Shown: positions 12,681 to 64,000 of the stretch, piece by piece
How positions within the stretch are numbered: position 1 is the first letter of the stretch
Layout of the letters: the number at the start of each line of letters is the position of its first letter
NCBI RefSeq assembly: GCF_009834535.1
Contig: NC_045696.1
Span: 68,822,001 to 68,886,000 of the forward strand
Length of the DNA: 64,000 bases
Reading direction: 5' to 3'
Origin: Camelus ferus
Lineage: Eukaryota
The notes under the pieces: generated by a model
Databases searched by the model: none
What the model saw: the letters and a program-made list of their open reading frames with translations, nothing else
What the model was told of the DNA's origin: nothing
Program-made: the position numbers and the translations under genes

Positions 12681-13619
12681 TTCTAGGAAAGGGAAAGAAA
12701 GAGGTTAGAATGTGAGCAAGAAGGTAGAAACACACAGAGACTGGGAGAAAGAAAAACAGAGACTGAGAAATTAAGTAGCAAAGTGAAGCCTGGAGTTACA
12801 CAAGAAGAGAAGAGAGATGCTGAGAGAGGGGCTAAAAAGAGAGAAAGAACCAGGAAAGTCCAAAACGAAATTTTTAAAGGAAGATAGTGTGAGGGAGAGT
12901 ACGTAACAAAGTAGGAGGAGGTGGGGGAAAGGAAGGAAGAAAAGATGAAGGGAGAAACAGAAGGAGGTGAAGAGGGTTGAGGACAGAGTATAAAAGATGA
13001 AGGTGCAGAGTTCCTGGGAAGAAATACCAACCAGAAAATCTAGCAGAACAAGGGGAAGTGCCCTTGACCAGGGGAGGGGAGGGGCAATCAACTCTGATAC
13101 CCTGGGCGGAGCTCAGTCTTGCAGTGGGCTGCAACTGGAATATGATGATGGAAAAGGAAGATGCCAAGAGACCTTCCGGGTCAGGTAGGAGTTTTTTACC
13201 TGTAGATCCATGGACAGACAGGGCTGTGAAAGGCAGGGCTGGGGCCAAAGCAGGGATGGTGATCCTCAACATCCTTTATAGGGATGGAATCAAGACTTCA
13301 GAACTGCCCATATTAGAGATGTTTATGTAAACCCTCTCTCTCTCTTTGCCTATCTTCAGATTTAGTCTACAACCTCCCCTATTCTCCTCCCACACCATCC
13401 CTGCCCACCTCATTACTTGGCAGGAACCCTGGGCCTCAGTGAACAGCCTGGACACACTGCTGATGCACTGGAGACATCCATGGTCTCCATGTTGGGGGGA
13501 ACAGGTGGGACAGGCTAGGGCACAATCCATCCTATTGCTCAGAGAAAGATGTTCACTCAAAATTATGCCATAAGGAGGGAGGTAAGTTGATCAGTTAAGC
13601 AGAAACTTTAGTTACCCTT

Positions 13620-14061
13620 ATTGAAAAACAAAATTCAACTGAGTAGATTTGGAGATCTAATTGGCTTGATTAAATGACTCACGAATGGGGCAGCATCTTA
13701 TCTGGCAAGCACAGAGATACTCTGAGGAGTACAAAATGAAAGGCTATTTATAGAGAGGGTGGGACCTGGAACTATCAGCAAGAGAAAAATGAAAATTCAT
13801 TGGAAGAAAGCAAGAGTTCAGGGTGACGATGGCTTCTTATTGGCTGAGCAGTGGCATTTTCCCATTGGCTGGGCTTGTTGCTGGGCGAGAAGAAGATATT
13901 CCTTCCTCCTGCCAGGATAGTAAAATAATGTCGCTTCCTGACAAAAATGCAACTTCCTGTTGGGATCTATAATTGAAGACGAGTGGAGGGTGTGAGAGCT
14001 CCCTCTACAGGCCTTCCTGACTCCCAATTTTAATTGCAGTATTCCATTATTAATTTTCACA
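13620..14061 (-). mobile_element. Solo ERV1-type LTR
   Basis: gaaaaacaaaattcaactgagta...ttccattattaattttcaca; CA terminus; family not resolved. Confidence 0.55.
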
Positions 14062-14225
14062 CTCTACTCAGCACCTTATCGCTGTTTGCTTTCTCAGCAA
14101 CAAAAGTTGCTACGGTTTGGAAAAATTCCAAGTGTTATCATGAGTTGGAGTCTAAAAAATGCCATTTTTACTTCTTATGTAACTCTGCCTCTTTCTCCTA
14201 TCCAAACTGTATCTTCCCCACATAG

Positions 14226-16892
14226 GGTATTTATCTAAAGGCACATCTCTGGGGATCTGAATCCCTAGTCTATTTGTTTTGAGAAGCCTTTATCCTAGAG
14301 GAATCTAATAATTAGTCTAGCTAAAATTCACACCTTGGCCTGAGTCATGAAAGGGCAGATTGGCCAAGGAATGGGGGCATAGGTGCTACTGGAGGGAGAC
14401 AGTTTTATGTGCTCCCCAGGGCCATCCAGAGCTTTGTGAGGGGTGAACCAGAGGAGGAGTGGGGCTTCTGTTGGAATCAGAATTGTGAGAAACTTAAACC
14501 CAACTGCCATCCCCCTGGCCCAGGGCATAGGGGCTGGGGATCTGCCAAGGCATCCTTGCCAAGATGCTCTTTGGAGTTCATACTCTTAGCACCCCTTCTG
14601 GCCAAACTCCATCAAAACACACCAAAAAAGTATATAAACGTTGAGTAATCATCTGTAACAGCCCTGGACCACAGGGAATAGTGTCCCCAGTGACCCAGAA
14701 ACTGAAAGATATTTTTTCAGAGAATGATGCAGATAGGATGGGATTGAGAAGCATCTTGCCCAACTAGTCATGTGTGAAAAGAGGGTCTGAGAGGAAAATA
14801 AGTGAGTAAGAGCCCTGCCAGAATCTGCAAAAACCACCAAGTAGAGCAGGAGGGCTAAGGGTAAAGACAGGTCCTAGGCAGCTGGGGGATCCAGCAAAGG
14901 AAAGACGGGAGAGAAGGGAAGTCGTTTAAGCCATGAGCATAATCCCTGTAAACATAGTTGTGAGACAATGTAAGGTTACCTAATAATTCTTGAGAGATAA
15001 GATATACAATGCAAAAATTTAATAATCTGTGTAAATTAATATTAGATGAGCTTTATTAAGTAGCTATGTAGAGTTTGCATGCATTATCTCACGTAATCCT
15101 GATATAATACCAATGCAGTAGATCCCATAAATACATTTACTTAAAGGGTGAAGAAACGTAGGCTCAAAGAGAACTTGACCAAAACCACATAGAACCAAAA
15201 TGTTACCCAGGCTAGTCTGACTTTGAAGCCCAGGCTTCTAACAACTACAAAAGATTTCCTCTCATGTGATTCCAACAAAAACTAAGGAATTCATGAGATG
15301 GGCAGAGAGTTAGGTGTTGGGAAGCCAGCACACCATGTGATATTATTCTCAGTTTTCCCACGTGGAAGTGAAGTGTAGTATGATTAGAGGCCATTCTTTA
15401 AAATCTCTTCCATCCCAAATAATTTGTGAAGTTGACCCCCTGTAGACTCTTTCAGGAATGATATCTCCAGGTTGTGCTGTTGTGTTGTTTTTTTAAAAGG
15501 TTCACACTTGATGGATGATGGTGAACAAGAAAGTGCTATCAGATTCTAACAATAGAAAATTATCACTTCAGTATTTTCCAGGGTCAGGATGCAAGTATAA
15601 TTGGAAAAGTGTGCTTGAAAAGTGTTGCCCCATCCCGTCCTGTGGCATCTCCCTGGCTACACCAGCTCATTGAAAGCAGTGATCATGGGAAATGGGGGGC
15701 AAGTTTGGACAGAATGACTTGATGACCCGGTGAAATCAGATGGGGAGAGACCATTTTGAGGATAACTCACTGCTGAGTGGTTTGTCATATGTTCTAGGAA
15801 ATGAGGGTGGAGCAGAAGGTGGAATGAAAATAAAAGCACTATTTCACTACTCATCATGTTGAACACTGAGGCACAGACAGCATCACGATCGTAGCGCCCA
15901 GTGACCAAATATAAAACACAAAGGAGAGGGGTGTTCTCCCGGATGGAATGCCATGGGGCTTTGGCACATGGTAGCTCCACTGCATCATGATCATCAATCC
16001 CAGTGGAACTATGGTACCCAGGACAGCAGCAGCAATGCCCAGTGGGACAAGGTGATACCTGTTGGGAGATGATGGTTCTTGAGAAAAGATAGTAGAGTGC
16101 AAAAGAAAGCAAGTATCAAAAATATCCAGCAACGAGGATGGTGTGCAGCTGGAAAATGGCAATGCAGAAACAGGAGCAGCAGGATTCAGTGAAATGGACA
16201 GATCCAGAACGAGTGTCAGCAGAGCCTGTGGTTGGCAGATAGAGCAATGCCCCACAGTAGAGAGCCAGGACAGAAACAGGAAAATCATGGCTGCCCTTGT
16301 AACTCACAGAGATGACTGTTGGGAAAGGGGTTCCTTTATTAAACTGATACTGTATTCCCCAAAACTATCAGGGCGAGGAAGAATCTACTCTTTGGGGAGA
16401 TAGTTGAACTTAACAGTCTCTGGTTCTCATTCCTTGAGATCCACCCTCTGTGTTGGTCAGGAGCTAGCAGCCAACTTGCAATCAAAAGCATCAGATGGTT
16501 GCTTATCCTGACATCTCTGAGCCATGGCCTCCCTCCAGACTTATGTGAGGAAAATAAATTCCTGTTTGTTTAAGCCAGTGCTGGACTAGTTTATGTTGTA
16601 ATTATGAGCATAGTATTTCCAACCTCAAAAATAAATGAAAGGAATGACACCTTAGAACACACAGCTGGGTACCATGTGTACCTCGGCTCAGAGCCCCCAA
16701 ACCCCAACCCATCATGTGCTTCTCTTTACTGGGTCCTCTGTCAGCTACTGACCTTGTTGATGTCAGTGGCCATCTATTATTCATCACCTAAAAATACTTC
16801 AAGCACAAGACTCCCCAAAGTTCAGACCCAAGAGAGAAAGAGCTAAAATAAGCAAGAGGCCAACCAAGATTCCAGGGATCATTTTGGTGGGG
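14226..16892 (+). pseudogene. Decayed SCAN exon, linker exon and KRAB-A exon (unit A)
   Basis: Acceptor ccccacatag|14226; SFVRGEPEEEWGFCWNQ..NCHPPGP resembles the SCAN-preceding GLVIVKVEEE..W.Q..PPGP; HTKK 14618; CTGTAACAGCCCTGGACC ~ LEQFLT 14653. Exon at 15500 contains GAACAAGAAAGTGCTATCAGA ~ GQEVLSE. 16745-16783 reads LLT..DVAIYYS ~ KRAB-A LLTFEDVAIYFS. Confidence 0.5.
16200..16602 (+). mobile_element. MLT1 LTR fragment
   Basis: tgtgaggaaaataaattcctgtttgtttaagccag 3' end. Confidence 0.6.
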
Positions 16893-17136
16893 GTGGGGAG
16901 GCAGTTGTTGTTTTACCTATTTTATAAATAGGAGAGAGACATGCACTAGTTTACAGCACCCATAGAGAGGGAGGGATTGAAAATACAGAATTCTGAGAGA
17001 ATAAATGATAGCACAAGATAAGGGAATTTTCCTGAACAGAAGAGTAAGTTCTTATTCTTCTGGGACTAGACAAAAAAGGAGGTGATAACTAGACAAAGAT
17101 TCAGGTGTGAAAGAAAAATCAAAATGGAGTTGGTAT

Positions 17137-17580
17137 TGCTAAGAGAGCTAAAAGGGAGCCAGGAGGCCACTGAGGAAGTGTGACTTATGCACATCTCAGC
17201 CTGGATGGAACCTGACCTTTTGACTACTTTCTTGTCCTAAAAAGACATCCAGAATATCTACCAGAAACTCAGGATACTTGTTAGATCCTTATCCTAAAAT
17301 GACTTGAGACAGCCTCTCTACTTATCAAACTCCTACCCTAAAATAAATTGTGAGTCCTTAAGGACAAATATTTCCTGACTTGCATCAGTCGATCACAGTT
17401 CTCGCCAGGCAATTTTTAACAACCTTGTGGCTTTTTGTCTTTCTAATCCCCTGACTCTTTCTCTTCCCCAGAACATTCTTTAGGTTTTACCCAAGTCGGG
17501 TTCTCCTGAATTGCAATTCTCAAGACCTTAAATAAATGCTTTGCTTATTTGCAGCCTCCTGCATTGTTTTTTGGTTGACA
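17137..17580 (+). mobile_element. Solo ERV1-type LTR
   Basis: TG...TTGACA termini; AATAAA near 17532 followed by a U5-like tail. Confidence 0.65.
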
Positions 17581-17994
17581 CGGGTGTGCAGGCAGGAAAC
17601 TAAAGGAATGAAGTTGAAGAGAAGGTTCTACCAGGTGGAAGATACATATGAAAAGTTAGGATGAAGGCTTGAGGAGAAGTGATGGTGGTTTGGAAGAACC
17701 TTTGGGAGGAATAGACGAGGAGCTATTTGAACAGGTGAGGAGGTCACCAGAGGATTTGCCCCAGGCTTACATATAATCAAATTAGACTTCTGGTTAGAAA
17801 TGGCAGCAACCTAAATACTTGCCTTTATTTCTACTCCCTTCCCACACCACATAAATACCAGATAAAATGATTTTTTAATATAAATTTATTAGGACAGACA
17901 GAATGGGAAGTGAGACTATAAAGGTCAGGAGAATTTAATACAACTTTAGAAAACAGAATCGGTCAGATGAGTACTAACAAAAAGTAAATCATCA

Positions 17995-18133
17995 AAAAAA
18001 AGTGACAATGAATATATGTATGTTCATGTATAACTGAAAAATTGTGCTCTACACTGGAATTTGACACAACATTGTAAAATGACTATAACGCAATAAAAAT
18101 ATTTTAAAAAATAAAAATGTTACACACACACAC
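17995..18133 (+). mobile_element. Young 5'-truncated camelid L1 3' end with perfect TSD
   Basis: TSD acaaaaagtaaatcatca at 17977-17994 and 18134-18151. Confidence 0.85.
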
Positions 18134-19299
18134 ACAAAAAGTAAATCATCAGTAGTCAGAAAACTGGAAGTGAAGTGCCTGCAGGTAAAAGCAGAATGCA
18201 TCACTCACCTGAGGCATCAGCACCACCTGGAAGCTTGTTAGAACTCCAACACTCTGGCCCCACCATAGACCTAGTGAATAAGAATCTCTGGGAGTGGGTC
18301 CTGATAACTGTGCTTCAGCAAGCTTTTCAGGTGATTTTTATGCAAATTAAGTTTGAAAAGCACTGCAATAAGTAAGGTATCAAAACCCAGAGTTTTGGGA
18401 ATGATAAGCACCTGGTATTCTCTGAGGACAGGGGTTCTGAGTGAGGCCAAACTTCAAAAGAACTAACTGAAAGTCAGTTTGAAGAGGGGTTAGAATCCCA
18501 GATTTCTTCCTTCAGTTCAAGCAGCCAGTTAACTGCACAAACAAGAAGTTTACTCTCAGAAAATGACGACGTGGGTCGACTTGACTTGAGGCAGAAGGAC
18601 CAGAAATGGCTGAAAGTAAAAATGAGTCAACACACTCAAAACAGGGAGATGAGAGGAAAATCTGCTTATTAAAGTAAACTTCTCTCTCTTGGCTTCCAAA
18701 ATGTTGGAAAGCAAGTGTGTTATTATCTCCCTCCCCAAGCAGGACATGGGAGAAGTTCTCCATAGTTAGACTGAGTAGCCTACAAGTACTGACATAATGG
18801 GGTAACCCCTCCCCCCCCAAAAAAGGCTGGGTCTCTTGCTGCCCAGCTACCCTGTAGTGAGGCTCACCAGCCTACAATCCCCACCAGAGCACTTCCAATT
18901 TCAGTGCCTCTTTTAAGTAAGAAAAGGGAGCCAAAGATCACAAGACATTTGAAGAAAGAATATAATGTGAAAGTCACAAAAGTAGACCCCCCTGCAAAAA
19001 AAAGGAGTTGAAGAAAGGCAATGCAAGAAGCAGAGAAAAATAACTCAAAACTATAATTAATGCCCTCTGAAAGATTAAAGATATTGCATACATGAAACAA
19101 GAAGGCTATAGAGTACTTGAAGAATAAAAATCATTCTTAGAAATTTTAAGAGTCTTTAGGAAAAATCAAAATTGAAATAAAAGAATTGAAAGGTAACGTT
19201 GAGGAGATTGCTAAGAAATCAGAACAACAACAAAAAGGCGAAGAGAACACAGGAGAAAAGAGATAAGAAAATCAGAGGATTGACCCAAGAGACTCAATG

Positions 19300-20210
19300 T
19301 TTTTAGGAAACTCCATACTGCTTTCCACAGCAGCTACAGCATTTTGCATTCCCACCAACAGTGCACAAGGGTTCCAATTCCTCAACGTCCTCATCAACAC
19401 TTGTTGTCTTTTTTTTTTTTTTTTTGACTAATAGTTATCATGACGGGGGTATAAGACAATATCACATTGTCATTTTGATTTGCATTTCTCTGATGATTAA
19501 TGATGTTGAGCATTTTAAAAAATATCTGTTGGCCAGTTGTATGTCTTCTTTGGCAAAATATATATTCAAGTCCTTAGCCCATTTTTCAATTGGATTATTG
19601 GGTTTTATGCTAGTTGAGTTGTAGGAACTCCTTATCTATTTTGAAGATTAAACCTTTAACTACTGTGTGATCCACTAATCCTACTTCTGGGGATTTATTC
19701 ACAAGAATTGAAATCAGGGTCTCAAAGAAACATTAGGACTTTCGTGTTCACTGCTACACTATACACAATAGCCGAGATGTGGAAACAACCCAAATGTCTG
19801 TTGATAAATGGATAAAGAAAATGTGGTATATATATTCAATGAAATACCACTGAGCCTTAAAAAAAAGAAGGACAATATCTGACAACATGGATGAGCCTTG
19901 AGAACATTATACTCATTGAAATAAGCCAGTCACTGAAATGGTGCATGATTCCACTTATTTGAGGTGTCTAAAACAGTCAAATTCAGAGTCGAAGAGTAGA
20001 ATGGTGGTTGCCAGGGGCTTGGGAGGAGAAAGCAGGGAGTTACTAACCATGGGCATAAAGTTTCAGTTAAGCAAGATGAATAAGCTCTAGAGACTACTGT
20101 CCAGCATTGCCTCTGTAGTCAACAACAATGAATGACACTCTTAAAAATTTGTTAAGAGGCTAGCTCTCATGTTATGTGTCCTGACCACAATAAAATAATT
20201 TTTTAAAAAA
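19300..20210 (+). mobile_element. L1MA-type element with 5' inversion
   Basis: 19300-19655 is minus-strand ORF2; 19657-20210 is the adjoining plus-strand 3' end. Confidence 0.8.
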
Positions 20211-22754
20211 TCCGGGTTTCAACATCTGCCCTAAAAACCAGCCAAGGAAGGATTCTAAAGAGGAGAAACCCCTCTGATGCAGAGAAAAACCTCATCTCTG
20301 TCAAAAATGAAGTCACCAAAGCAACTATGCTAAAGATCCATGCAAGGATCCTATTAAAAACAAATGAAGAAAAGAAAAGAAAACAAACAGGATATAAAGG
20401 ACATTTATCAGAGGAAAAAAAGTTGCTTTGGATAACTTGAAAATTATGACTATTTTACCACAAAAGTTTAAAAAATTAAAGATTTGATTGCAAAATTGAA
20501 AGAACATACAGTGTCCCAGGAAAAAGTAACACAGAGACCTCCCGTAAAACAAAGTTACTGAACTTCAAAGACAAAGAATTCTTTGGGGAGCTATGCAAAA
20601 ATAGTAAGTCATTTACAAAGGACAAAAACAAGGCTGATCTCAGATTTCTCAAGAGCAAATTTCCATTCCAGTAAATTGTGGAGCAATGCTTATAAATCCT
20701 CAAGAGAAATCATAACCGAAGACTATTTTACACATTCAAAATGTCACTCAAGTGCAAAGGTGAGAAATAAACATTTTGAATATTTGATGAGCCCTTCTAG
20801 TAGAAAATGCTAGAAAGATGAACTTCAGTCAGCCAAGAGATAAATGAGAAAAACAATAGGACTGGCATTGAGATGGATCTACTTTACTGTAGGACAAAGA
20901 TTAAAGCAAATGCAGGGGTTACGGTAACAATGCAGAATGTAAAAGTAATAATCCTGACTGAATGGAAACAACATATATATAACAGATTTGAGAAAATAAT
21001 TGGGAGAATTAGTAGGTACTAGTATTTGCTGAAATCACTCGTGCTTTATAGCAAGAGGTCAAAAGATATCATTGGAAGCTGATAAATCAAGTAAAAGTAA
21101 TGGAAGTTTATTCAGCAATACAAAGGTAAGTGCTAAGAAAAATGGCAACTAAAATTGAATGGAGGGGGGAAGAGGAAGCCAAAGGAAATACACTAATTTG
21201 TGGCTGCCCCCCATGTGGAGTTAGATTCTGTCTAAACAGACATAGTATTAAACATTTTAAGTTACAGTCAGAATTATTTTAGGTCAAAAATAAATATTTT
21301 TCAAGTATTCAAATAAACACACACATTCTAAACAATTACAAAACACACTGCGTGGTAGATATGAAGATACAAAAACATAAAACTAAATAATATGACAGAA
21401 CTAAGCTAAAAATATTTGCTCTGTGAAAGACTCTGTTAAGAAGATAAGACAAGCTACAGAATGAGTGAAGATATCTGCAAAACACGTGCCTGACAAAGAG
21501 CTAGTATTTAGACTATGTATTTAAAAAAACTCTCAAAACTCAACAGTAAAATAGAGACAAGTTGGTAAAAGGGAACAAATTTTCAGTTATAAGATGAATT
21601 AGGTCTAAGGCTCTGATGTAAAACATGGTATCTATAGTTGATAACACTGTGCTGTATCATTGAAATTGGCTGAGAGTAGAACTTAAATGTTCTCACCCCC
21701 CCCAAAAAAAGGTAAATATATGATGGTTGCCTTAATTAATTCAAAGAGAGGAAAGCTTTCATGATGTATATGTATATTAAATCATGTTGTACACTTTAAA
21801 TACCTTACAATTTCGCTTATCAATTATGCCTCAATAAAGCTGTGGGGGAAACCACAATAATAATCAAAAAAAAACCCCAAACAGTTCACCGAAGAGGATA
21901 CATAGATTGCAAACCAGCATTTAAAAAGACATTCAACATTATTAGCCAACTGAGAAGTGCAAATTAAAACCACAGTGAGATATCACTACATACCTAGCAG
22001 AATAACTAAAATAAAAAATAGTGACAACACCAACTGCTGGTGAGAATGCAGAGAAATTAGATGACCTCTAACTTGCTGGTGGGAATATAAAATGATACAG
22101 CCACTCCAGAAAGCAATTTGGCAGTTTCTGAAAAACTGAACATGCATTTACCATGCAACTCAGCAATTGCATTTCTGGGCATTTCTTACACAGAAACCTG
22201 TACATAAATGTTCACAGCAACTTCATTTGTAAAGGCCCAAAACTGAAATCAGCCCAGATGTCCTCCAGCTGGTGAAGAGTTAAACAAATTGTGGCATATT
22301 CCTCATAGAGTACTACTCAGCACCAAAAAAGGCACAAATGACTCAGAGAAAACAGCTGAGATGAATCTCCAGAGAATTATGCCAAGTAAAAAATGCCAAT
22401 CCCAAAAGGTTACATACTGAGTGTTTCTGTTTATATTTCAATCCTTCAATGACATAATTATAGAGATGGAAAACAGACTAGTAGTTACCATGGATTAAAG
22501 ACGGAGTGGGGATAGGTGGTAAGTGGGTGTGGCCATTAAAGAGCAACATGAAGAATTCTTCTGGTGATGGAAATGTTCTGTATCTTGACTATATCAATCT
22601 CAATATCCTGGTTGAATATTTTAGGATATGTTTATAGGATGTTACCTTTGGGGAGAACTGGCTAAAGGGCACAGAGGATCTCCTTGTATTACTTCTGACA
22701 ACTGCTCATGAAAGGACAATTATCTCAAGTTGTAAAATTTAATTTTTAAATGCT

Positions 22755-23745
22755 GATAGGTTTATTTTTTGCCTTCAAAGTTACTAACCATAGATACAAT
22801 GAAGTTTTTAACATTGATACACAAGTTATTTCAAGAAAACAATTTAAAGAATCATATTTGGATATCATTTTCTGAGTACTAGCTGCAGTTGAGTGATAAG
22901 AAGTAACATCATGGGTCATGTCATTTCATAAACAACACTGTCTCCGAGACTTAAAAAAGAAAAACCCCATCATAACCCCAGCATTATAGAATTCATTACT
23001 AAAACTAGGAGAACTACCTTGAATGATGTAAGTCTCCCATTAACAACCAGTAAAAGTTTGAATGTCTTAGCCTGCATAAGAAAACCAGGTCTAAGAAGAA
23101 AAACACTTTTAAAATATTTTGTTCACTATTTGAGATGACTGGAATGCTTTGCTTCAATCAAAAAAGTAAAAAGTAGAAGACTAACATATCTTTCAAAGGC
23201 ATTTGAAAGTTAAAGTCCTTCCACTGCAAGAAAATAAGATCAATCTCATTAAATGAAGGAAATTATGGTGAGATTTAATCAACAAATGTATGTCATGTTA
23301 AACTCACTTACCAATACCTTTCAAAATTTCCATCTTTGTATGGGTTAAATAAGGATAGGCTTAAAGACAGATTTGCAAATATACCGACTTTGAGTATGAT
23401 GATTAGATTTAAAGATCTGTGTGATTAATCCTTTTGTGATTATGTAAAAATGCTAGTCAATATTTGCAGGATAACATAGGTAGATAAGATACCTGGTCTA
23501 CCCTTGGATGATTTAATCGGTGTAAGGAGGAAGGGTTTTGTGTATACAATTCGAACTTTCATATCCACTTGTTTGCAAAGAAGGGTCTTATAATATAGCA
23601 TCTCCAACTACAAATCTGAAAAAGATTTCAGCGTACCACTGCAGTTACTGCAAAGATGAACGAGGTAAACTGTTAACATTTAACAGCTTTGATATTCCTT
23701 TAAAGTTAGAACTAAATTAGCATAGATACTGTATTAGCAGCAATC
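22755..23745 (+). mobile_element. Fossil C-terminal half of a hAT Charlie/Buster-type transposase
   Basis: Ordered motifs across frameshifts: LFQENNL 22826, HKQH 22927 (HCxxHRQHL), IEFITKTRRTTLND 22986, KFECLSLHKKTR 23054 (FERLLLHTEVRW), LTYLSKAFE 23181, LQENKINLIK 23224, VINPF 23421, SYPL ~23558, ASPTTNL..FS (dimerisation domain). Confidence 0.75.
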
Positions 23746-23899
23746 TTACTAACTTTTGTGAATATTATTTTAAAATAAAAGTACCATTTAAAATTTAGTT
23801 GCCTAAGAAATCTGTGATATGGACATATCATCTTGACTCGTGGCAGGGAGATAAGGCATTTGTGATCGAGGAAGAAACAGCTCAGAATGGTGGTCCTGG

Positions 23900-24600
23900 T
23901 CTCTGAAAGCCTGAGGTTGCTCACGGACAAGAGGGCGCCTCCTCGAGGCCTTGGCGGTTCCTCGCTTGTTGACCCACTCGAGGCCAGGCTGTTTGTCTCT
24001 GGCTCTCACCTCCCAAGGTATGAGAATCTTTTACTAGTTTACCTAACACTAGTCTGCGCTGTGCGCTAAGCCCTTTGCGGGGCGGCAGATGAGGCACTGA
24101 GGCCAGACCAAGGACAGCTGAGTAACTGGAACTCCACAGCGGCTCAGAGCGCATCATACTCAGCAATCACCCCGCCCCCGGCCGCTCCTCAGAGGGGCGT
24201 GGCCGGAGGCGGGGGCGGGGCCTGTCGCCTGGGAAACCACGTGCTGTGCAGCCGTGCACTTCCGGCCTCAGTTTCCGTTGAACGGCGGCAGGTAGTCGGG
24301 GTGGACCGTTGCTGCCCGCAGACGCCAGCGAAGGAAGAAGGGTCTTTGAGGCTCAGAGCCACCGAGACCCCAGCTCCTCTTAGCCGACTGGCCCCCCACT
24401 AATCTATGCGTCGAGGTCCGCGTGCCCCTCCCCTGGGAAAAGCTGAAGTGCGGACGCCTGAAAGAACCGCTGCTGGGCATGGGTAAGAAAGTTCCCTCCT
24501 CAACCTCACCCTCAGCCTGGTCCACCCAGCAGGGTTGAAGGCAGCAAACTATGCCACAGCAGTAGCTTCTGGAGGTCACTCATCGTCGCCACCTGTTCCT
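23900..24600 (+). promoter_or_regulatory. CpG-island promoter with probable first exon (~24270-24482)
   Basis: Only CpG-dense non-coding block in the window. GC boxes (~24171-24222), X-box-like GTCGCCTGGGAAAC 24224-24237, CACGTG 24238-24243, ETS site CACTTCCGG 24257-24265, Inr-like TCAGTTT at ~24270, CCGTTGAACGG (MYB-like palindrome) 24275-24285, donor TGG|GTAAGA at 24482/24483. Confidence 0.8.
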
Positions 24601-30801: not shown

Positions 30802-32159
30802 AAAAGACGCAGAAGAGGGAAATGTTTCAACCTGCAGGAGGGTGTATAGGCATAGGAGTTTTATATATGCGATAAAAGGCTTTTAAATAACATTTTGATT
30901 TTAGGTTGTGTACCGAACAAAGAAGTGCAGAAAACTAAAAGAGGACATGCTAAGGAAAAGGATTCAGAAAGTTGTACAGTGATGCCTTGAATTCACTACA
31001 AGTCAGTGGAGTATGAATTACACAGACAAGCATGATCACATATTTGATGGAAACTTCATGTGATGCAGATAACTTGGTAATGGTGGAAATGTGGAAAAAA
31101 ACAGCTTGCAGGAAGATTGCTATTTCTGTGTCAAGTATTTTCTGTATAAAGTATTTTCAGTTTCAAAACTGAAGCCATTTGCCATACAGAAAAAAAAAGT
31201 GGAAAAATTTTATCAATTCCATTTATGATAAGTAAGAATAAAACCGATGAATGGTATGTATAAAGAACTTTGGTTTAAAGGTGACAAGGACATTACCAAC
31301 GCACGTGAAGCACAGCAAGATTCACAAATGACTAGAAAATCTCACAACTTTACAAACTAGTTCTTATAACCCAGAGGCCGCTTAGGGCAGTCAGGAGGTA
31401 TGCCCGCAGCTTTCGACGAGTCTGTAGCAGGGACTCTTGACTTTCTCAAGAGTGGGATGCTTTGCGGACTTGTGATTGGTTTTCAAGCCAAGTGATTATT
31501 ATAACAAATATAGCTTGTAGCTGTGAGTGGGGTGAAGTCTTTTAACCTAGCCTGAGAGTAATCACCGATATCCTCCTTATAGACCTATTGGGTGACCGAG
31601 ATGACTTTGTAGAGCTGTTAAGTGGTACTCATTTGTATAAGAACCTGATATTCTCACAAAAGTGAAAAGTGATTGTATTTGCATCTTGGCCTCTTTGGGG
31701 TAGGAAGTTCCCTGTTTCTCTTAAGGGGAAAAAAAGGAACTTTTTACATTGTGTGCTTTTTTCTTGTTTAAAGTTTCAGATAGTTTTTTAGTTTTGCATG
31801 TATTTTTACATTGGGAGTGAAGAACTAAGGCTGTAGATAGCATCGATCTCTGAGTTTTAAACAACTTTTTAAGTAAGGTTTTCAGAAACTTAGACAATTT
31901 TTCTTAATTTTGAAAGCTATTTAATTTTGTGAGCTAATTACATTAGCAACTAAAGTTTAGGAAGTTACGTCTTAGAACTTTATGACTTTTTACGCTTTCT
32001 ACTTTGGGAATTGACTTTAAATGAGGGCAGCAGGGTGATGGTGGGTAGGATTAGTGCAGTGACATGTGACATACGACTGAATGGAAAAAAGGAGAGCCAG
32101 TGACCTCACTGTGCAATCAAATATAAACATAATTTAATGATTATGCCTGTGTCATCACC

Positions 32160-33135
32160 ACTGAGATGAGAAATAGAAAATTGCCAGCATTCCAGGAAAT
32201 TACTGCATGTTGCTTCCAAATTACAGCCCTTCTCCTCGCCACAGGTGACTACTATCCTGACCCGTGTAATAATTCCTTTTTTATACCAGTGGTTCTCAAA
32301 GGATTGTCTAACATCAGCATCATCTGGGAATTTGTTAGAAATGCAAATTCTTGGGCTGCCTTCAGGCCTAATACACTTAAACATTTTTGTTGGATGCATA
32401 GTTATGTGATTAAAGTGTAAAACAGTGATTCTCCAACGTTAGCATATATCAGAATCACCTGGGTGGCCTATTAAGCTATAGATCCTAAACCCTACATCTA
32501 GGTTTCTGATAATCTCTGTTGTCTGTTTCGTTCACTAATTCTAATTTTCCTATATACTGGGTATTATTTGACTCTGTGCTAGTCATTACACATGAAAGGT
32601 TATTTTTGTAGGAGTAATCAGGCCTATAATGAAAATACTTCGCCCTGAAGAGTATTTGCATTTACTTCTGCCAGGCACCTGGGGGCACTACCAGTCTGGG
32701 ACCACCTGTTCAAAGTTTGCTGTTTCCTGGACAACTCAAGGGATTGTTAATTATGTTTTAATTCTCTTCAGATTATTCCAATTCTTGTTCACCTTCACTC
32801 TGAGATCCTGGAACCCTGGCTGGTGTGGGGGAAGGTCTCCCATCGGACTCCCCAACTTGTGTGGACCCAGAGTTTTGTTTTCTGTTCCCTTCTGCATCCT
32901 GAAAGGCCATCAGAATGGAGGTTCTAATTTTCTGAGATTCCCTCCAGGCGTGTTTACTTCTCTGGATTCTTGACTTCTCTTTACTTTTGGCTGATAATTC
33001 CTTACTATTTTTTAATCTCTTTGACGTTTTTAAAAAGATTATTCTAAATATATTTTATCCAGTGTTTTAGTTGTTTTCTGCTGTAGGACTGATGCAAACA
33101 ACGTGAACGACCATTAGCAGAAACAGGAAATCTGA
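32160..33135 (-). mobile_element. Old L1 fragments with two MER5A pieces (~32288-32365, ~32423-32510)
   Basis: cagtggttctcaaa..catcagcatcatctggga..gttagaaatgcaaatt; atcagaatcacctg. Confidence 0.65.
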
Positions 33136-38730: not shown

Positions 38731-40377
38731 AATTGAATTGGCTCTTAATCTTCACTCTTCTTGATAAGGTTCCCTGTGTTTGCCAGAGATAAACTTTGGG
38801 ACAGTGGTCATGTCTGAGTTATAAAGTAACCTTTTTGCTTTGCCCAAAGAATTGAAGCCACTGTTATGAAAAGGATAAAAAACATAATGAGTGTTCATTA
38901 TGTACCAGGCACTATAGTAGGCACTGGCATATGGAGTGAGTAAAAACAGAGTTCCTACCCTTGTGGAACTAATTAAATAGACTGGGGCAAATAATAAATT
39001 TGCAGATATAATTACAAACTGTGAGATGACCATGTCTACTTACCTTGTCAGCCAGTAAACAAAATCATAAGGTAATATTCTTCAGGGATCCCAGACTGAG
39101 GGCTACCTGATATGAGTGTATACTTGGAGTGTTACACAAAGATGCCTGGCCAGGGACGTTAATGGGGACTAAAACACTCATCAGAATTTCCCTTACCAAG
39201 CCATGCCCTTGTGCAAGGCTACATCTTCCTAAAGGAAGGGTATGTTTTTCTTTGTACCAAGGTATCAGTAGCATGTCTTCCTCTGATATTAGAAAGGAAT
39301 TCCCTATTCTCAAAATTGAGTGGGAAGCTCTATCTTGTAAATGTGTAGTTGCCTTGAACACAGAGATGTATCTGAGGTGGATGTCAAAGTCATAAGTGGG
39401 TATAATTGTAGGCTTAGAAAAAATAGAAAATGAAAAGGCCTAGGACATTGGTATTTTTAGGACATAACTTTAAAAAAAAATGGATCCTACGTCTACAGGG
39501 GTTAGAGCAATATTATAGATGTAAGAGAGAGTAGATAAAGGACAACACAGTGGTGGGATTGTGGAGGAAGGAACTGGACTGTGTGCATCATGAGGATGGT
39601 TATATTGTGTTGAATGAACTTGTGGGCATCACATTGGGAAAAGCTGTGGTGGAGGGAAAAAGGGATCCATGTATAAGATGATGTATTTCTGTATCCTGAG
39701 CCTGGCTAGTTGAACAAGTGTTTATTCCCATATCTTAAAATTTCAACTCCATTTTAAAATCATGGACTTAGTTTATGGGAGTGATCCTGCTTCTGGGAAG
39801 AATCTTGCCAGAATAAGTCCAGAAACAAAAAGCAAAGAACGAGGGGCCTGGTGTCTTGAAGTTACGGCTCTTCCCAGCAGTTGTATCCTATTGGACAGCT
39901 GGAGCAGACCTCTCCGAGTCTAAGTATTTCATCTGAAAATTAGAGGCTGCTTTCCTTGGTGGGTTATGACTCTTGAAAGGTATTGAGCAAAAACTCTGTA
40001 AACCATGAGGCAATAAAGAGGATATGTTTTTCATGAAATGCTGAGTTTCAGTGGCCTTTGGGCTGGGTTTAGTTGGCTGGGTTGGCAGAATCTCTACCTT
40101 GAAATGGTCTTTCTGGGTGGAGATCTGAGCTCCTCTGTCTTCTGACTGCAACAAGGGCTTTGACTACGCTCTAGCATAGGCAATTGAAAAACTTTTAGTC
40201 ATACAGACTTAACACAGTAAGTTTCCTGACTCGGTCAGTTTATGTTTTGAGCACAGGCCATGTATGTCTTCTCATGGAATCTGTGGTCAATTAGGATCTT
40301 CTCTCTTTTTGATGAGGCCCATAAAATTGAGGTAACTCTCAAGCACCAGCAGCAGTGTTAACAGATGCACTTGAGAG

Positions 40378-40697
40378 TTGAAGTTCAATTTGTGTGGGCA
40401 TACTACAAAGGACAGCAAATTGGCAAGGTGGTCCAGGGGATAGGAAGATGTGCCATCTACATTGAACAAGTGCAGCAGGAGAAGGCCTATGACACCTCTG
40501 TCCCTGTGGTTATTCACCCCAGCAAAGTGGTTATCTCTAGGACAAAACTAGACCAAAATTGCAAAAGAGCCTTGAACATAAAGCCAAATGTCACCCAGTA
40601 AGGGAGTAAAAGGGCAACTATAAGGAAGAAATAATTAAAGTGATACAGGAATAAAATAATCTTATCTACAACTTCCATTAAAAAATGCTAAAATGAA
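40378..40697 (+). pseudogene. RPL26: 5'-truncated processed pseudogene of ribosomal protein L26 (uL24)
   Basis: [52 protein letters not shown] aligns to RPL26 [52 protein letters not shown]. 1-nt frameshift near 40565; native CAGGAATAA stop ends 40654; RPL26-like 3' UTR (taatcttat...attaaa) then a decayed AT-rich tail; intronless. Confidence 0.93.
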
Positions 40698-40959: not shown

Positions 40960-43900
40960 CATGCATTGTTCTTATGCCCAGAACACACATAAGACAGAAA
41001 AACAGGCAAAAGATTTTAACAGATGACCTATATATACACATAAGAAAGATATAAAAATGTCTCTTACACATTAAAAAAAATGGATATCTAGCCTTACTTA
41101 GAGGAATGCAAATTAAATTACAGTGAAATACCATTTCTCACCTATCAGATTAGGGAAAGTTGGATAATATGACACCCCTAGAGCACTTAGCTTTGGTGAC
41201 CAGAGGAGAGTGTGCTGCTGAGCTCCATAGGATGTCTGTCTCCTATATAAGATCACGTCCCCAAGATCAGGAAACATAACTGACCTACCCTAATGCATAG
41301 AAATAAACAGAATTAGGCAAAATGAGGAGATAAAGGAATATGTTCCAGGCAAGATAAAACCCCAGAAGAATAACTAAGTGAAGTAAAGATAAGTAATCTA
41401 CCCAATAAGAGTTTAAGGTAATGATCATAAAGATCATCACCAAACTCAGGAGAAGAATGGATGGACACAGTGAAAATCTTAAGAGTTAGAAAATATAAAA
41501 ACCAAACAGAGCCGAAGAATACAATAACTGAAATAAAAAATACACTAGAAGGGATCAACAATTGTATATAATGCTGTGTGAACACTGGAGTGCATGCATC
41601 TTTTCAAATTGGTGTTCTTGGTTTTTCTGGTTTTGGTTTTGGTTCCTTTGGGTTTTTGGTGGTTTTTCTTTTATTTCTTTTTTTTTTTTTTTTTTGGTGG
41701 GGGGGATATATATCCAGGAGTGGAATTCCTGGGTCATATGATAGTTCTGTTTTTAGCTTTTTGAGAACCTCGGTACTATTTTCTACAGTGGCTGCACCAA
41801 CTTCCATTCACACCAACAGTGTAGGAAGGTTCCCTTTTCTCCACACCCTCGCCAACATTTGTTATTACTGTTCTTTCTGATGATAGCCATTCTGACAGTG
41901 TGAGGTGAGATCTCATTGTAGTTTTGATTTGCATTTCCTTGGTGATTAGTGATGTTGAACATCTTTTTATGTGTCTGTTGGACATCTGCATTTCCTCTTT
42001 GAAAAATGTCTATTCATTTCTTCTACCCAGTTTTTAATTGGGTTGGTTTTTTCATTTGTTTTGTTCTGTTTTGTTTCATATTGAGTTGTGTGAGCTGTTT
42101 ATATTTTTTGGATACTAACCCTTTAATAGTCATATCATTTGCAGATATTTTCTCACATTCAGTAGGTTTTCACTTTGGTTTCCTTTGCTGTGCAAAAGCT
42201 TTTAAATTTAATTAGATCCCATTTATTCATTTTTGCTTTTATTTACTTTGCTTTAGGAGACAGATCCAAAAAATATTGCTGCAATTTATGTCAAAAGAGT
42301 GTTCTTCCTGTTTTTCTCTCGGATTTTTATGGTTTCCAGTATTACATTTAGGTTTTTAATCCATTTTGAGTTAATTTTTGTATATGGTGTTATAGAATGT
42401 TCTAATTTCATTCTTTTACGTATAGTTGTCCAGTTTTGCCAGCACAGCTTGTTGAAGAGATTATCCTTTCTCCATTGTATATTCCTGCCTCCTTTTTAAT
42501 AGATTAATTGACCATAAGTGTGTGGGTTTATTTCTGGGCTCTGTGTTCTGTTCCATTGATCTATGTGTCTGTTTTTGTGCCAATACCATACTGTTTTGAT
42601 TACTGTAGCTCTATAGTATAGTCTGAAATCAGGGAGCATGAGTCCTTCAGCTCTGTTTTTCTTTCTCAGGATTGTTTTAGCTATTCAAGGTCTTTTGTGT
42701 TTTCATATACATTTTAAAATCATTTGTTCTAGTTCTGTGAAAAATGCCATTGGTATTTTGATAGGGATTGCATTGAATCTGTAGATTGCCTTTGGTAGTA
42801 TGGACATTTTAACAATATTAATTTTTCCAATCAAAGAACATGGTGTATTTTTCCATCTGATCTGTCATCCTCAATTTCTTCCATCAGTGTCTTACAGTTT
42901 TCTGAGTACAGGTCTTTTGCCTCCTAAGATAGGTTTATTCAAAGGTGATGCAAAGGTGAATGAGACTGTTTCCTTAATTTCTCTTTCTGATAATTCGTTG
43001 TTAGTACACAGAAATGCAACAGATTTCTGTATATTAATTTTGTATCCTACATTTTTACCAAAATTAGTTTTCTGGTGGCATCTTTAGGATTTTCTGTGTA
43101 TAGTATCATGTCATCTGCAAACAATGACAGTCTTACCTCCTCCCTTCCAATTTGAATTCCTTTCATTTCTTTTCCTTGTCCGACTCTTGTGACCAGGACC
43201 TCCAATATGATGTTGAATAAAAGTGGCAGGAATGGCCATCCCTGTCCTTTTCCCAATCCCAGAGGAAATGCTTTCTGCTTTTTACTATTGAGTATGATGT
43301 TAGCTGTGGGTTTATTTAACTTTTTACCATTCAGTTTTCCTTTTTAATGGTACCCCCTGAACTTCTATTCATTGCCTATACAACAGGTAGGCTCTACTTT
43401 CATCTTTACTTCTTCCTGAACCTTCCATTTTTAATTGCATTATTTCTTATTTGTCAAAACATAAATTATTATTCTCAACTCAAACTTTAGGTCTTAGATC
43501 TACAATTAAATATATTAAAATTTTACAGACTTCTGGTTCTAGTTGTGCAGTAAGGAGCTTGGAAGTCACCATGTTGTCCCAACAATAAGTAAAAAGCTTA
43601 ACATACTGAAAGGTCAACAGTTCCTCTTAGATCTGTAAGAGAAAGTCAGACATTGGGCAAACAGTTGCTCCCAGGATTGGACACACGGGTGAATACCAGG
43701 AGTCATGGCTTACCTAAACAGAGACTCACCAGTGGAAAAAACCACGGAAGCTGGTGCCAGGGAAGGAAAACATGAACTGTAATTTGACAAGTTACTAGAA
43801 GTTCAGTGTAGACAACTCTGAGAATTAAAAACTCCAGAGATTCCTAGTTATAGGGGAGGAGGGAATAGTTATGGGTGGGCAGAGTTTTGTGAGTTTACCT

Positions 43901-63713: not shown

Positions 63714-63961
63714 TTAGGCTCCACAGCGAATGCTCCGGAAGCCAGGCAGTATGGCTTTCCCCAGCAGGTAAATGTCCTCGTCTGTGCCCCGGTTGAGGTG
63801 CTTCACCATGTTCTTCTCGAAGAGGAGCGGGTGGTAGGCGCCCATCGTGCAGGCGCTGTCGAAGAACTTCTGGTAGTAGTAGCACACGTCGGTCTTGCGC
63901 TTGGAGGGGAGGAACTCATAAATATCCACCTGGTCACACAGCGTCATCATGATGATGATGC
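63714..63961 (-). CDS. ST6GAL1: Last coding exon of beta-galactoside alpha-2,6-sialyltransferase 1 (gene continues beyond the window end)
   Basis: Translates (G)[81 protein letters not shown]: end of sialylmotif S, motif III (YYY) and motif VS (HPLLFE). Pyrimidine-rich acceptor cctctgctcccctccctag abuts 63961, phase 1. Confidence 0.98.
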
Positions 63962-64000
63962 CTAGGGAGGGGAGCAGAGGTGAGTCCCGCCCAACGACCA

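Follow-up and report, generated by a model that had tools for sequence, protein, structure and literature searches.

Among the described fusions of host domains with transposases, SCAND3/ZBED9 (Buster4) has the architecture that was proposed for the locus studied here, namely a SCAN part in exons 1-2 and a last exon with a Buster-type transposase (PMC3575427; PMC3606216). PGBD1, which goes back to the therian ancestor, likewise joins SCAN and an often decayed KRAB to a transposase in the last exon (PMC9538788), and ZMYM6, ZBED5, ZNF862 and POGK have been described as domesticated transposases, several of which arose by splicing. A census counted 106 fusions, with a hAT share of 23.4% and 32 KRAB events, and capture by splicing to an acceptor before the transposase open reading frame (ORF) accounted for 8 of the 9 fusions examined (10.1101/2020.05.07.082677). 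Here we analyse 64,000 nucleotides from Camelus ferus (contig NC_045696.1, positions 68,822,001 to 68,886,000, forward strand; this whole stretch is called the window and positions are counted from its first letter), which reach into ST6GAL1. An earlier note, made from the sequence alone, had placed a lost SCAN-KRAB-Charlie transposase fusion gene at 14226-23780. This proposal was partly confirmed: the transposase is real, the host exons are unproven candidates, and we lean towards an ordinary ancient hAT fossil.

The C-terminal half of a Buster/Charlie-type hAT transposase

The window contains, at 22891-23708 on the (+) strand, the decayed C-terminal half of a Buster/Charlie-type hAT transposase, covering the HRQH motif and the insertion domain up to the dimerisation region. 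It was aligned to a profile of 24 clade members with a profile-to-DNA aligner written for the purpose, in which frameshifts are allowed and neutral substitution is modelled. The clade profile reached 38 bits on the remnant, compared with 10.6 ± 2.0 for shuffled sequences (0 of 60 as high), and this was the best site of the whole window on both strands (35 bits vs 19 for the runner-up). Moreover, each third of the remnant was significant by itself (0/150 shuffles as high). The alignment spans profile columns 275-586 of 605 and agrees with the consensus at 87 of 275 matched positions, through a reading frame broken by nine frameshifts and nine stops. The catalytic motif lies at ∼23601-23635, and a glutamate codon at 23618 is aligned, across a frameshift, to the conserved catalytic glutamate. 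We regard both the presence of the transposase half and its place in this clade as firm. A same-strand hAT C-terminal half had been described in the earlier note; the 3' end of ∼23780 given there is compatible with the glocal path, which runs to ∼23770. An AATAAA just behind the end of the transposase (23774-23779, +) would fit a gene end and the 3' region of a transposon alike. At the other side, a possible 5' extension up to the L1 edge (22763-22890, +) was not significant (20/200 shuffles reached its score) and contains a pyrimidine tract followed by an AG ending at 22780, which reads as acceptor-like. The 64-kb window holds no second copy of the remnant.

Common searches did not detect this sequence. 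Single frames of the transposase region gave nothing in Pfam (0/3 frames, and none of 15 pieces relevant), phmmer against 1.84 billion proteins returned 0 matches, and in a tblastn with 24 Buster ORFs the region was absent among the best 60 matches. Intact Buster-type references were collected by motif scan, from 2 loci at the beginning and at least 120 stretches later, and 24 open frames of at least 250 residues were kept from at least 122 Buster loci. The general profile of all 24 stayed at z −0.4 to 1.4 on the window over 12 local and 12 glocal settings, and in the control a held-out member with 0.5 substitutions per site and 5% indels was recovered at z 7.5; judged by the general profile by itself, the transposase would have been dismissed in error. 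The choice of the clade was made after viewing the window, as six members with a common and distinct motif set, and the six-member profile gave glocal z values of 4.1 and 2.6 and local values of 1.7 and 0.7. Closer references came from a homologue search with the piece of the clade member L061 most similar to the window, which yielded 19 proteins of 674 candidates. The two outer thirds of the remnant, mostly outside this query piece, were significant independently. As a side observation, a Buster transposase of eukaryotic type, intact and joined to bacterial-looking genes, was met (L002, 2238-4181, −) on a 6-kb contig from a metagenome-assembled genome of a gammaproteobacterium, a context that is likely due to host contamination or to a chimeric contig.

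The named ones among the 19 clade proteins come from prawn, sponge, cobra and insects, with no mammalian protein among these matches of the 674 candidates in what was a weak search. No clade member shares more than 31% identity with the remnant, and P0008 is the best single scorer on it (z ∼10). Databases label the clade automatically as 'SCAN domain-containing protein 3-like' or 'FAM200C-like' (P0003, P0010 from prawn, P0015 from cobra, P0031 from a beetle, L061 and P0008), the Pfam lists of its members contain no SCAN domain, and neither a SCAN nor a KRAB family occurs in the 8 Atlas rows listed for it. A quick tree of 37 rows, made without 9 of the 45 references because they covered too little of the sequence around the anchor motif, gave the window a branch of 3.38; it is not counted as proof because the window row was aligned through the clade profile.

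Membership of the remnant in three other groups was discarded, all their profiles being at noise level. The ZMYM6 profile (4 proteins, from a SCAND3-directed search with 21 candidates) reached 9 bits, with 30/60 shuffles as high, and the ZBED5-like (14 proteins) and SPIN-like (3 proteins) profiles had 37/60 and 41/60 shuffles as high. The last two group names are our own labels, given by resemblance, and SCAND3/ZBED9 would belong with the ZBED5-like group, which scores at noise on the window.

The remnant is a truncated copy. A profile of the N-terminal half, with the BED finger and the first two catalytic aspartates, gave no signal in the whole window, and in 17 overlapping pieces of 13-23.5 kb its highest z was 2.5, again no signal. 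The remnant begins at the edge of a block of L1 sequence. Within this block, 19296-20221 (−) consists of L1 3' pieces of mixed orientation that match other window copies by blastn at 61-70% identity (E down to 7e-49), the window partner at 41.7-42.2 kb adjoining an RVT_1 match (E 7e-7), and 21448-22410 (+) consists of L1 3' pieces matching window copies at 61-67% identity. By eye, L1-like sequence continues from 22410 to ∼22760. The L1 block of the earlier note was thereby upheld for these two intervals; Pfam matched none of 12 frames in the block itself, and the remainder of 17600-22760 is classed as L1 by eye. Elsewhere in the window, 41600-43350 (−) is a piece of L1 ORF2 with a reverse transcriptase domain match (E 7e-7).

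L061 is a whole element with 15-bp terminal inverted repeats (TIRs) and an 8-bp target duplication. Its best match in 23700-24500, where the right TIR was looked for, has 11 of 15 positions and lies at 24350, inside a CpG island and near the expected distance behind the remnant; 13 sites in the window reach 11, and the left end is missing. We also observed short hAT repeats of the miniature inverted-repeat transposable element (MITE) kind at 18180-18370 and 32280-32520, which we take to be MER5-type; one MITE-like end, at 32301 (−), agrees with the L061 TIR in 12 of 15 positions. A MITE pair, intended as an internal clock, could be aligned over just 60 bases.

Concerning the decay of the frame, the first two codon positions at 41-44 conserved columns show a mismatch of 0.27-0.28, as simulated with ∼0.25 substitutions per site, and the total score of the remnant corresponds to simulated 0.55-0.7 substitutions per site. 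Codon positions one and two are equally hit at the conserved columns (12/42 and 13/42); the third-position counts (2/42) were left unused, being an artefact of the choice of the nearest synonymous codon. When L017, a distant member, was subjected to simulated neutral decay of 0.25-0.35 with 5% indels, it gave scores of 34-96 and conserved-column mismatches of 0.17-0.42, ranges that include the window values (40 and 0.28). As neutral decay of L017 gives the same numbers, a domesticated gene and a transposon of a distant lineage are not separable by decay statistics. Converted from decay to time, these values would place the death of the frame roughly at or before the placental radiation.

The candidate host exons upstream

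The three exon starts claimed upstream of the transposase are all preceded by a pyrimidine tract and an AG, and so are 1404 sites in the window. The candidate SCAN-like exon (14226-14860, +), unproven, was recognized by eye from its likeness to SCAN genes. Eleven words follow in order across frames: PEEE at 14448, GLLL at 14462, CHPPGP at 14505, KASLPR at 14547 running into DAL at 14563, W at 14599, HTK at 14618, LDH at 14664, ENDAD at 14720, ERKISE at 14789 and EPCQ at 14810. The likeness of these words (14448-14821) to SCAN genes is our assumption, and they were chosen post hoc. A chain of five short SCAN patterns, the one SCAN test of known power, scored 2.9 bits at the locus as compared with 5.1 ± 3.0 for shuffles, so low that 147/200 shuffles and 229 of 256 window bins were as high. 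Of 100 simulated SCAN domains, 1-12 scored as low as the locus when decayed by 0.25-0.35 and 11-23 when decayed by 0.45, compared with 30% of shuffles, and the chain had a power of 0.47-0.87 at a decay of 0.3-0.45. At the decay level of the transposase this amounts to a likelihood ratio of roughly 0.1-0.4, against SCAN. Pfam reported no SCAN domain at the candidate exon (0/3 frames, 0/12 pieces and 0/2 read-through pieces), four PDB searches gave no SCAN match and the Atlas no usable match, a homologue search that started from the 107-codon open frame retained 0 of 125 candidates, and SCAN/KRAB motif scans of viral and metagenome contigs gave 0 matches. The SCAN exon of the earlier note thus went undetected by domain and structure searches, with a pattern chain below the shuffle mean.

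The candidate post-SCAN exon (15500-15581, +) has fared better. It starts behind an acceptor with VHT at 15500, EQE at 15523 and VLSD at 15533, and its exon-2 score ties for second among the 1404 acceptor sites, three distinct places being as high or higher, counting the 15500 site itself. Given ∼28 acceptors in 2.6 kb, such a word would arise by chance with a probability of ∼0.06-0.1, which is borderline. The GQEVLSE-like exon claimed here keeps its acceptor and its rank, but EQE and VLSD lie in different frames.

The claimed start of a KRAB-A exon (16745-16783, +) found no support in the acceptor ranking, being 104th of 1404 with a short pattern and 319th of 1403 with a longer one. The claimed word reads LLTLLMSVAIYYS in one frame and DV in another, the motif is not continued, no GT donor follows at the expected exon length, and Pfam is blank at this place. 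The KRAB test consists of short patterns only, which a badly decayed KRAB could escape. That no zinc fingers are visible between KRAB and transposase agrees with our results, since neither the C2H2 linker pattern (6 matches vs 8.7 expected) nor the 84-nt periodicity was of note (the lag-84 excess peaked at 0.047 within an L1 piece, ∼2.5 standard deviations among ∼210 bins).

RNA from 4 of the 24 listed runs, as three contig sets and one set of raw reads, was compared with 13000-17600, a stretch that lies upstream of the transposase. Scattered contigs, 150-600 bases long and with a depth of 2-12, cover its unique parts, in candidate exons and introns alike. Four joints were listed over 13000-17600, all in repeats and none with GT..AG ends, and so no spliced transcript was seen, an absence that contigs cannot prove; the raw-read run placed 0 reads there, from 1% sampled. 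In the RNA runs with 0.11-0.33 of the words, the matching material proved to be repeats and short contigs of low depth, which DNA or background could explain. Transcription is in any case not required of a dead gene. Between two of the candidate exons lies a multi-copy repeat (15926-16233), where contigs fit and then diverge from the window with loose ends. Further repeats, LTR-type by eye, occupy ∼13616-14077 and 17004-17600, and the repeat searches found no repeat bounding the 14226-23780 unit. We also noticed, at 13150-13195 (+), a CTTCCGG motif with a donor-like site behind it, ∼1 kb before the acceptor of the candidate SCAN exon, which could be a dead first exon, though CpG is depleted there (0.06).

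Origin of the remnant

We think it rather probable that the remnant is an ordinary, neutrally decayed hAT fossil. An autonomous cut-and-paste transposon of the Buster/Charlie clade would have inserted near ST6GAL1 at about the time when placental mammals arose, or earlier, and would have decayed neutrally since then; later L1 insertions (17.6-22.8 kb) would have removed or buried its N-terminal half and left the C-terminal one. The remnant would code for no protein and have no function as a gene, and the SCAN-, exon-2- and KRAB-like words upstream would be chance resemblances in old unique DNA. Protein fossils of transposable elements are common (PMC9004415). The ST6GAL1 region is not known to be a SCAN-rich cluster. 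Several points weigh against such an origin. The conserved columns are less decayed (∼0.25) than the total score implies (0.55-0.7), the pattern to be expected if a protein first drifts under selection and dies later. In a comparison of low power, no TIR in the window matched that of L061 convincingly. The exon-2 word stands behind an acceptor, in the expected order and with its tied second rank, and SCAN-like words outside the chain, as far as a likeness judged by eye goes, have the correct order. The chain, made of five short patterns only, omits the parts that look best by eye (14547-14571 and 14789-14821) and overlooks 4-23 of 100 real domains when these are plausibly decayed, and the blanks in Pfam, PDB and phmmer say little because the real transposase half was blank too.

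These words would find their place in a dead host-transposase fusion, with or without KRAB, in which a SCAN exon was spliced to the second exon and from there to an acceptor before the transposase, an explanation to which we give limited credence. The product would have been a SCAN(-KRAB)-BED-hAT transcription regulator, dimerising via SCAN and hAT and binding DNA via the transposase; its death would fall near the base of the placental mammals, and the junction would later have been deleted by L1. The order and strand of the SCAN-like words, the acceptor with the exon-2 word, the KRAB-like word, the transposase and the AATAAA fit this model, there is no trace of zinc fingers, the eleven words run in order by eye, and the decay pattern is compatible with earlier selection. 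The usual capture route, moreover, is splicing to an acceptor that lies shortly before the transposase ORF (10.1101/2020.05.07.082677). However, the SCAN chain is negative and KRAB, the weakest part of the earlier model and unnecessary for a fusion, is not above chance; the read-through piece is blank in Pfam and PDB, the weak search found no mammalian clade protein, the Atlas rows for the clade hold no SCAN or KRAB family, the junction is absent and there is no spliced RNA. If the SCAN exon were real, a same-strand transposase within 8 kb would hardly be a coincidence, and confirming SCAN would therefore move most weight to the fusion, because such a neighbour without a finger exon is not expected by chance. 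The upstream words could also belong to a dead SCAN gene, SCAN-only or SCAN-zinc-finger with its finger exon deleted, next to which the hAT fossil would be an unrelated neighbour. The SCAN words seen by eye and the rank of exon 2 suit it equally, and the loss of a finger exon to the L1 block is as easily imagined as that of a transposase N-terminal half, but it requires two rare things to adjoin, the SCAN test was negative and no finger trace is left, so that we hold it improbable. Very improbable, in our opinion, is a stand-alone domesticated transposase, truncated at its N-terminus, entered via the acceptor at 22780 and later lost. It would be FAM200-like, a label that also occurs as a Pfam name in the clade listing. 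The acceptor-like site at the 5' edge, the AATAAA at the end and the presence of the C-terminal half only would agree with it; against it, the 5' extension is not significant and no mammalian relative was found in the weak search. As the 5' edge of the remnant is also the end of the L1 block, truncation is explained more simply than by domestication.

The locus and its comparison with described systems

The last coding exon of ST6GAL1 lies at 63717-63962 (−; phmmer to PDB ST6GAL1 chains, E 4e-49; PF00777, E 1.4e-5), and it is this exon that places the locus. The SINEs of the window look camelid. The transposase remnant lies ∼40 kb past the ST6GAL1 stop and ends just short of a CpG island (23500-24500), where CpG observed/expected is 0.60 and 0.70 in two 500-nt bins vs 0.00-0.31 in the remaining 26 bins between 12 and 26 kb. 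The part at 24000-24500 contains GC boxes, a CTTCCGG motif at ∼24259 and then a donor-like site at ∼24291, and is probably a promoter directed towards ST6GAL1; its human counterpart presumably carries RPL39L. Downstream of the island, an old, unique and AT-rich stretch at 30900-31700 (+) follows an acceptor at ∼30905 and shows the cysteine-containing words CYFCVKYF and KKKWKNF, which by eye recall the zinc finger of hAT genes of the ZMYM1/ZNF862 type. Pfam was blank there in 6 frames or pieces and no Buster signal was found; this is possibly a second fossil. A decayed RPL26 retrocopy (PF16906, E 2.7e-8) with a polyadenylation-like end occupies 40300-40660 (+).

Compared with the members of its own clade, the remnant has a collinear C-terminal half with the clade words HRQH, RFKDL, QLL and D.RLKL, and differs from them in being broken and in missing its N-terminal half. 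SCAND3/ZBED9 differs from the locus in its GINGER2 integrase exon, in its Charlie10-derived transposase and in being alive in most eutherians (PMC3575427). PGBD1 carries a piggyBac transposase and not a hAT one, is under purifying selection, and lies in a SCAN-rich domain, a location to which its capture of SCAN is ascribed (PMC9538788). Of the further host-transposase fusions, the comparison covered ZMYM6, whose profile stayed at the noise level (9 bits). The literature covered, which leaves out most subscription papers, showed no description of a pseudogene next to ST6GAL1 that derives from a SCAN/KRAB gene or a transposase.

An undescribed SCAN(-KRAB)-hAT fusion beside ST6GAL1 in early mammals, from a clade without a mammalian gene among those compared and lost around the placental base, is a tentative proposal. 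If true, it would add a SCAN-hAT capture of independent origin, away from the SCAN clusters known so far, and would be a death record for a host-transposase fusion, and marsupials or monotremes might still have it intact. Even one extinct fusion would mean that the birth rate of such genes is undercounted, and extinct fusions are invisible to the census because it counts annotated, RNA-supported genes (10.1101/2020.05.07.082677). Read as an ordinary fossil, the remnant matters little, except as a sign that this Buster clade once made its way into the mammalian line. It would then resemble the transposable element protein fossils of the human genome (546,821, vs 27,240 host-gene fossils), which likewise include highly degraded and frameshifted transposase relics missed by BLAST (Frith 2022, PMC9004415).

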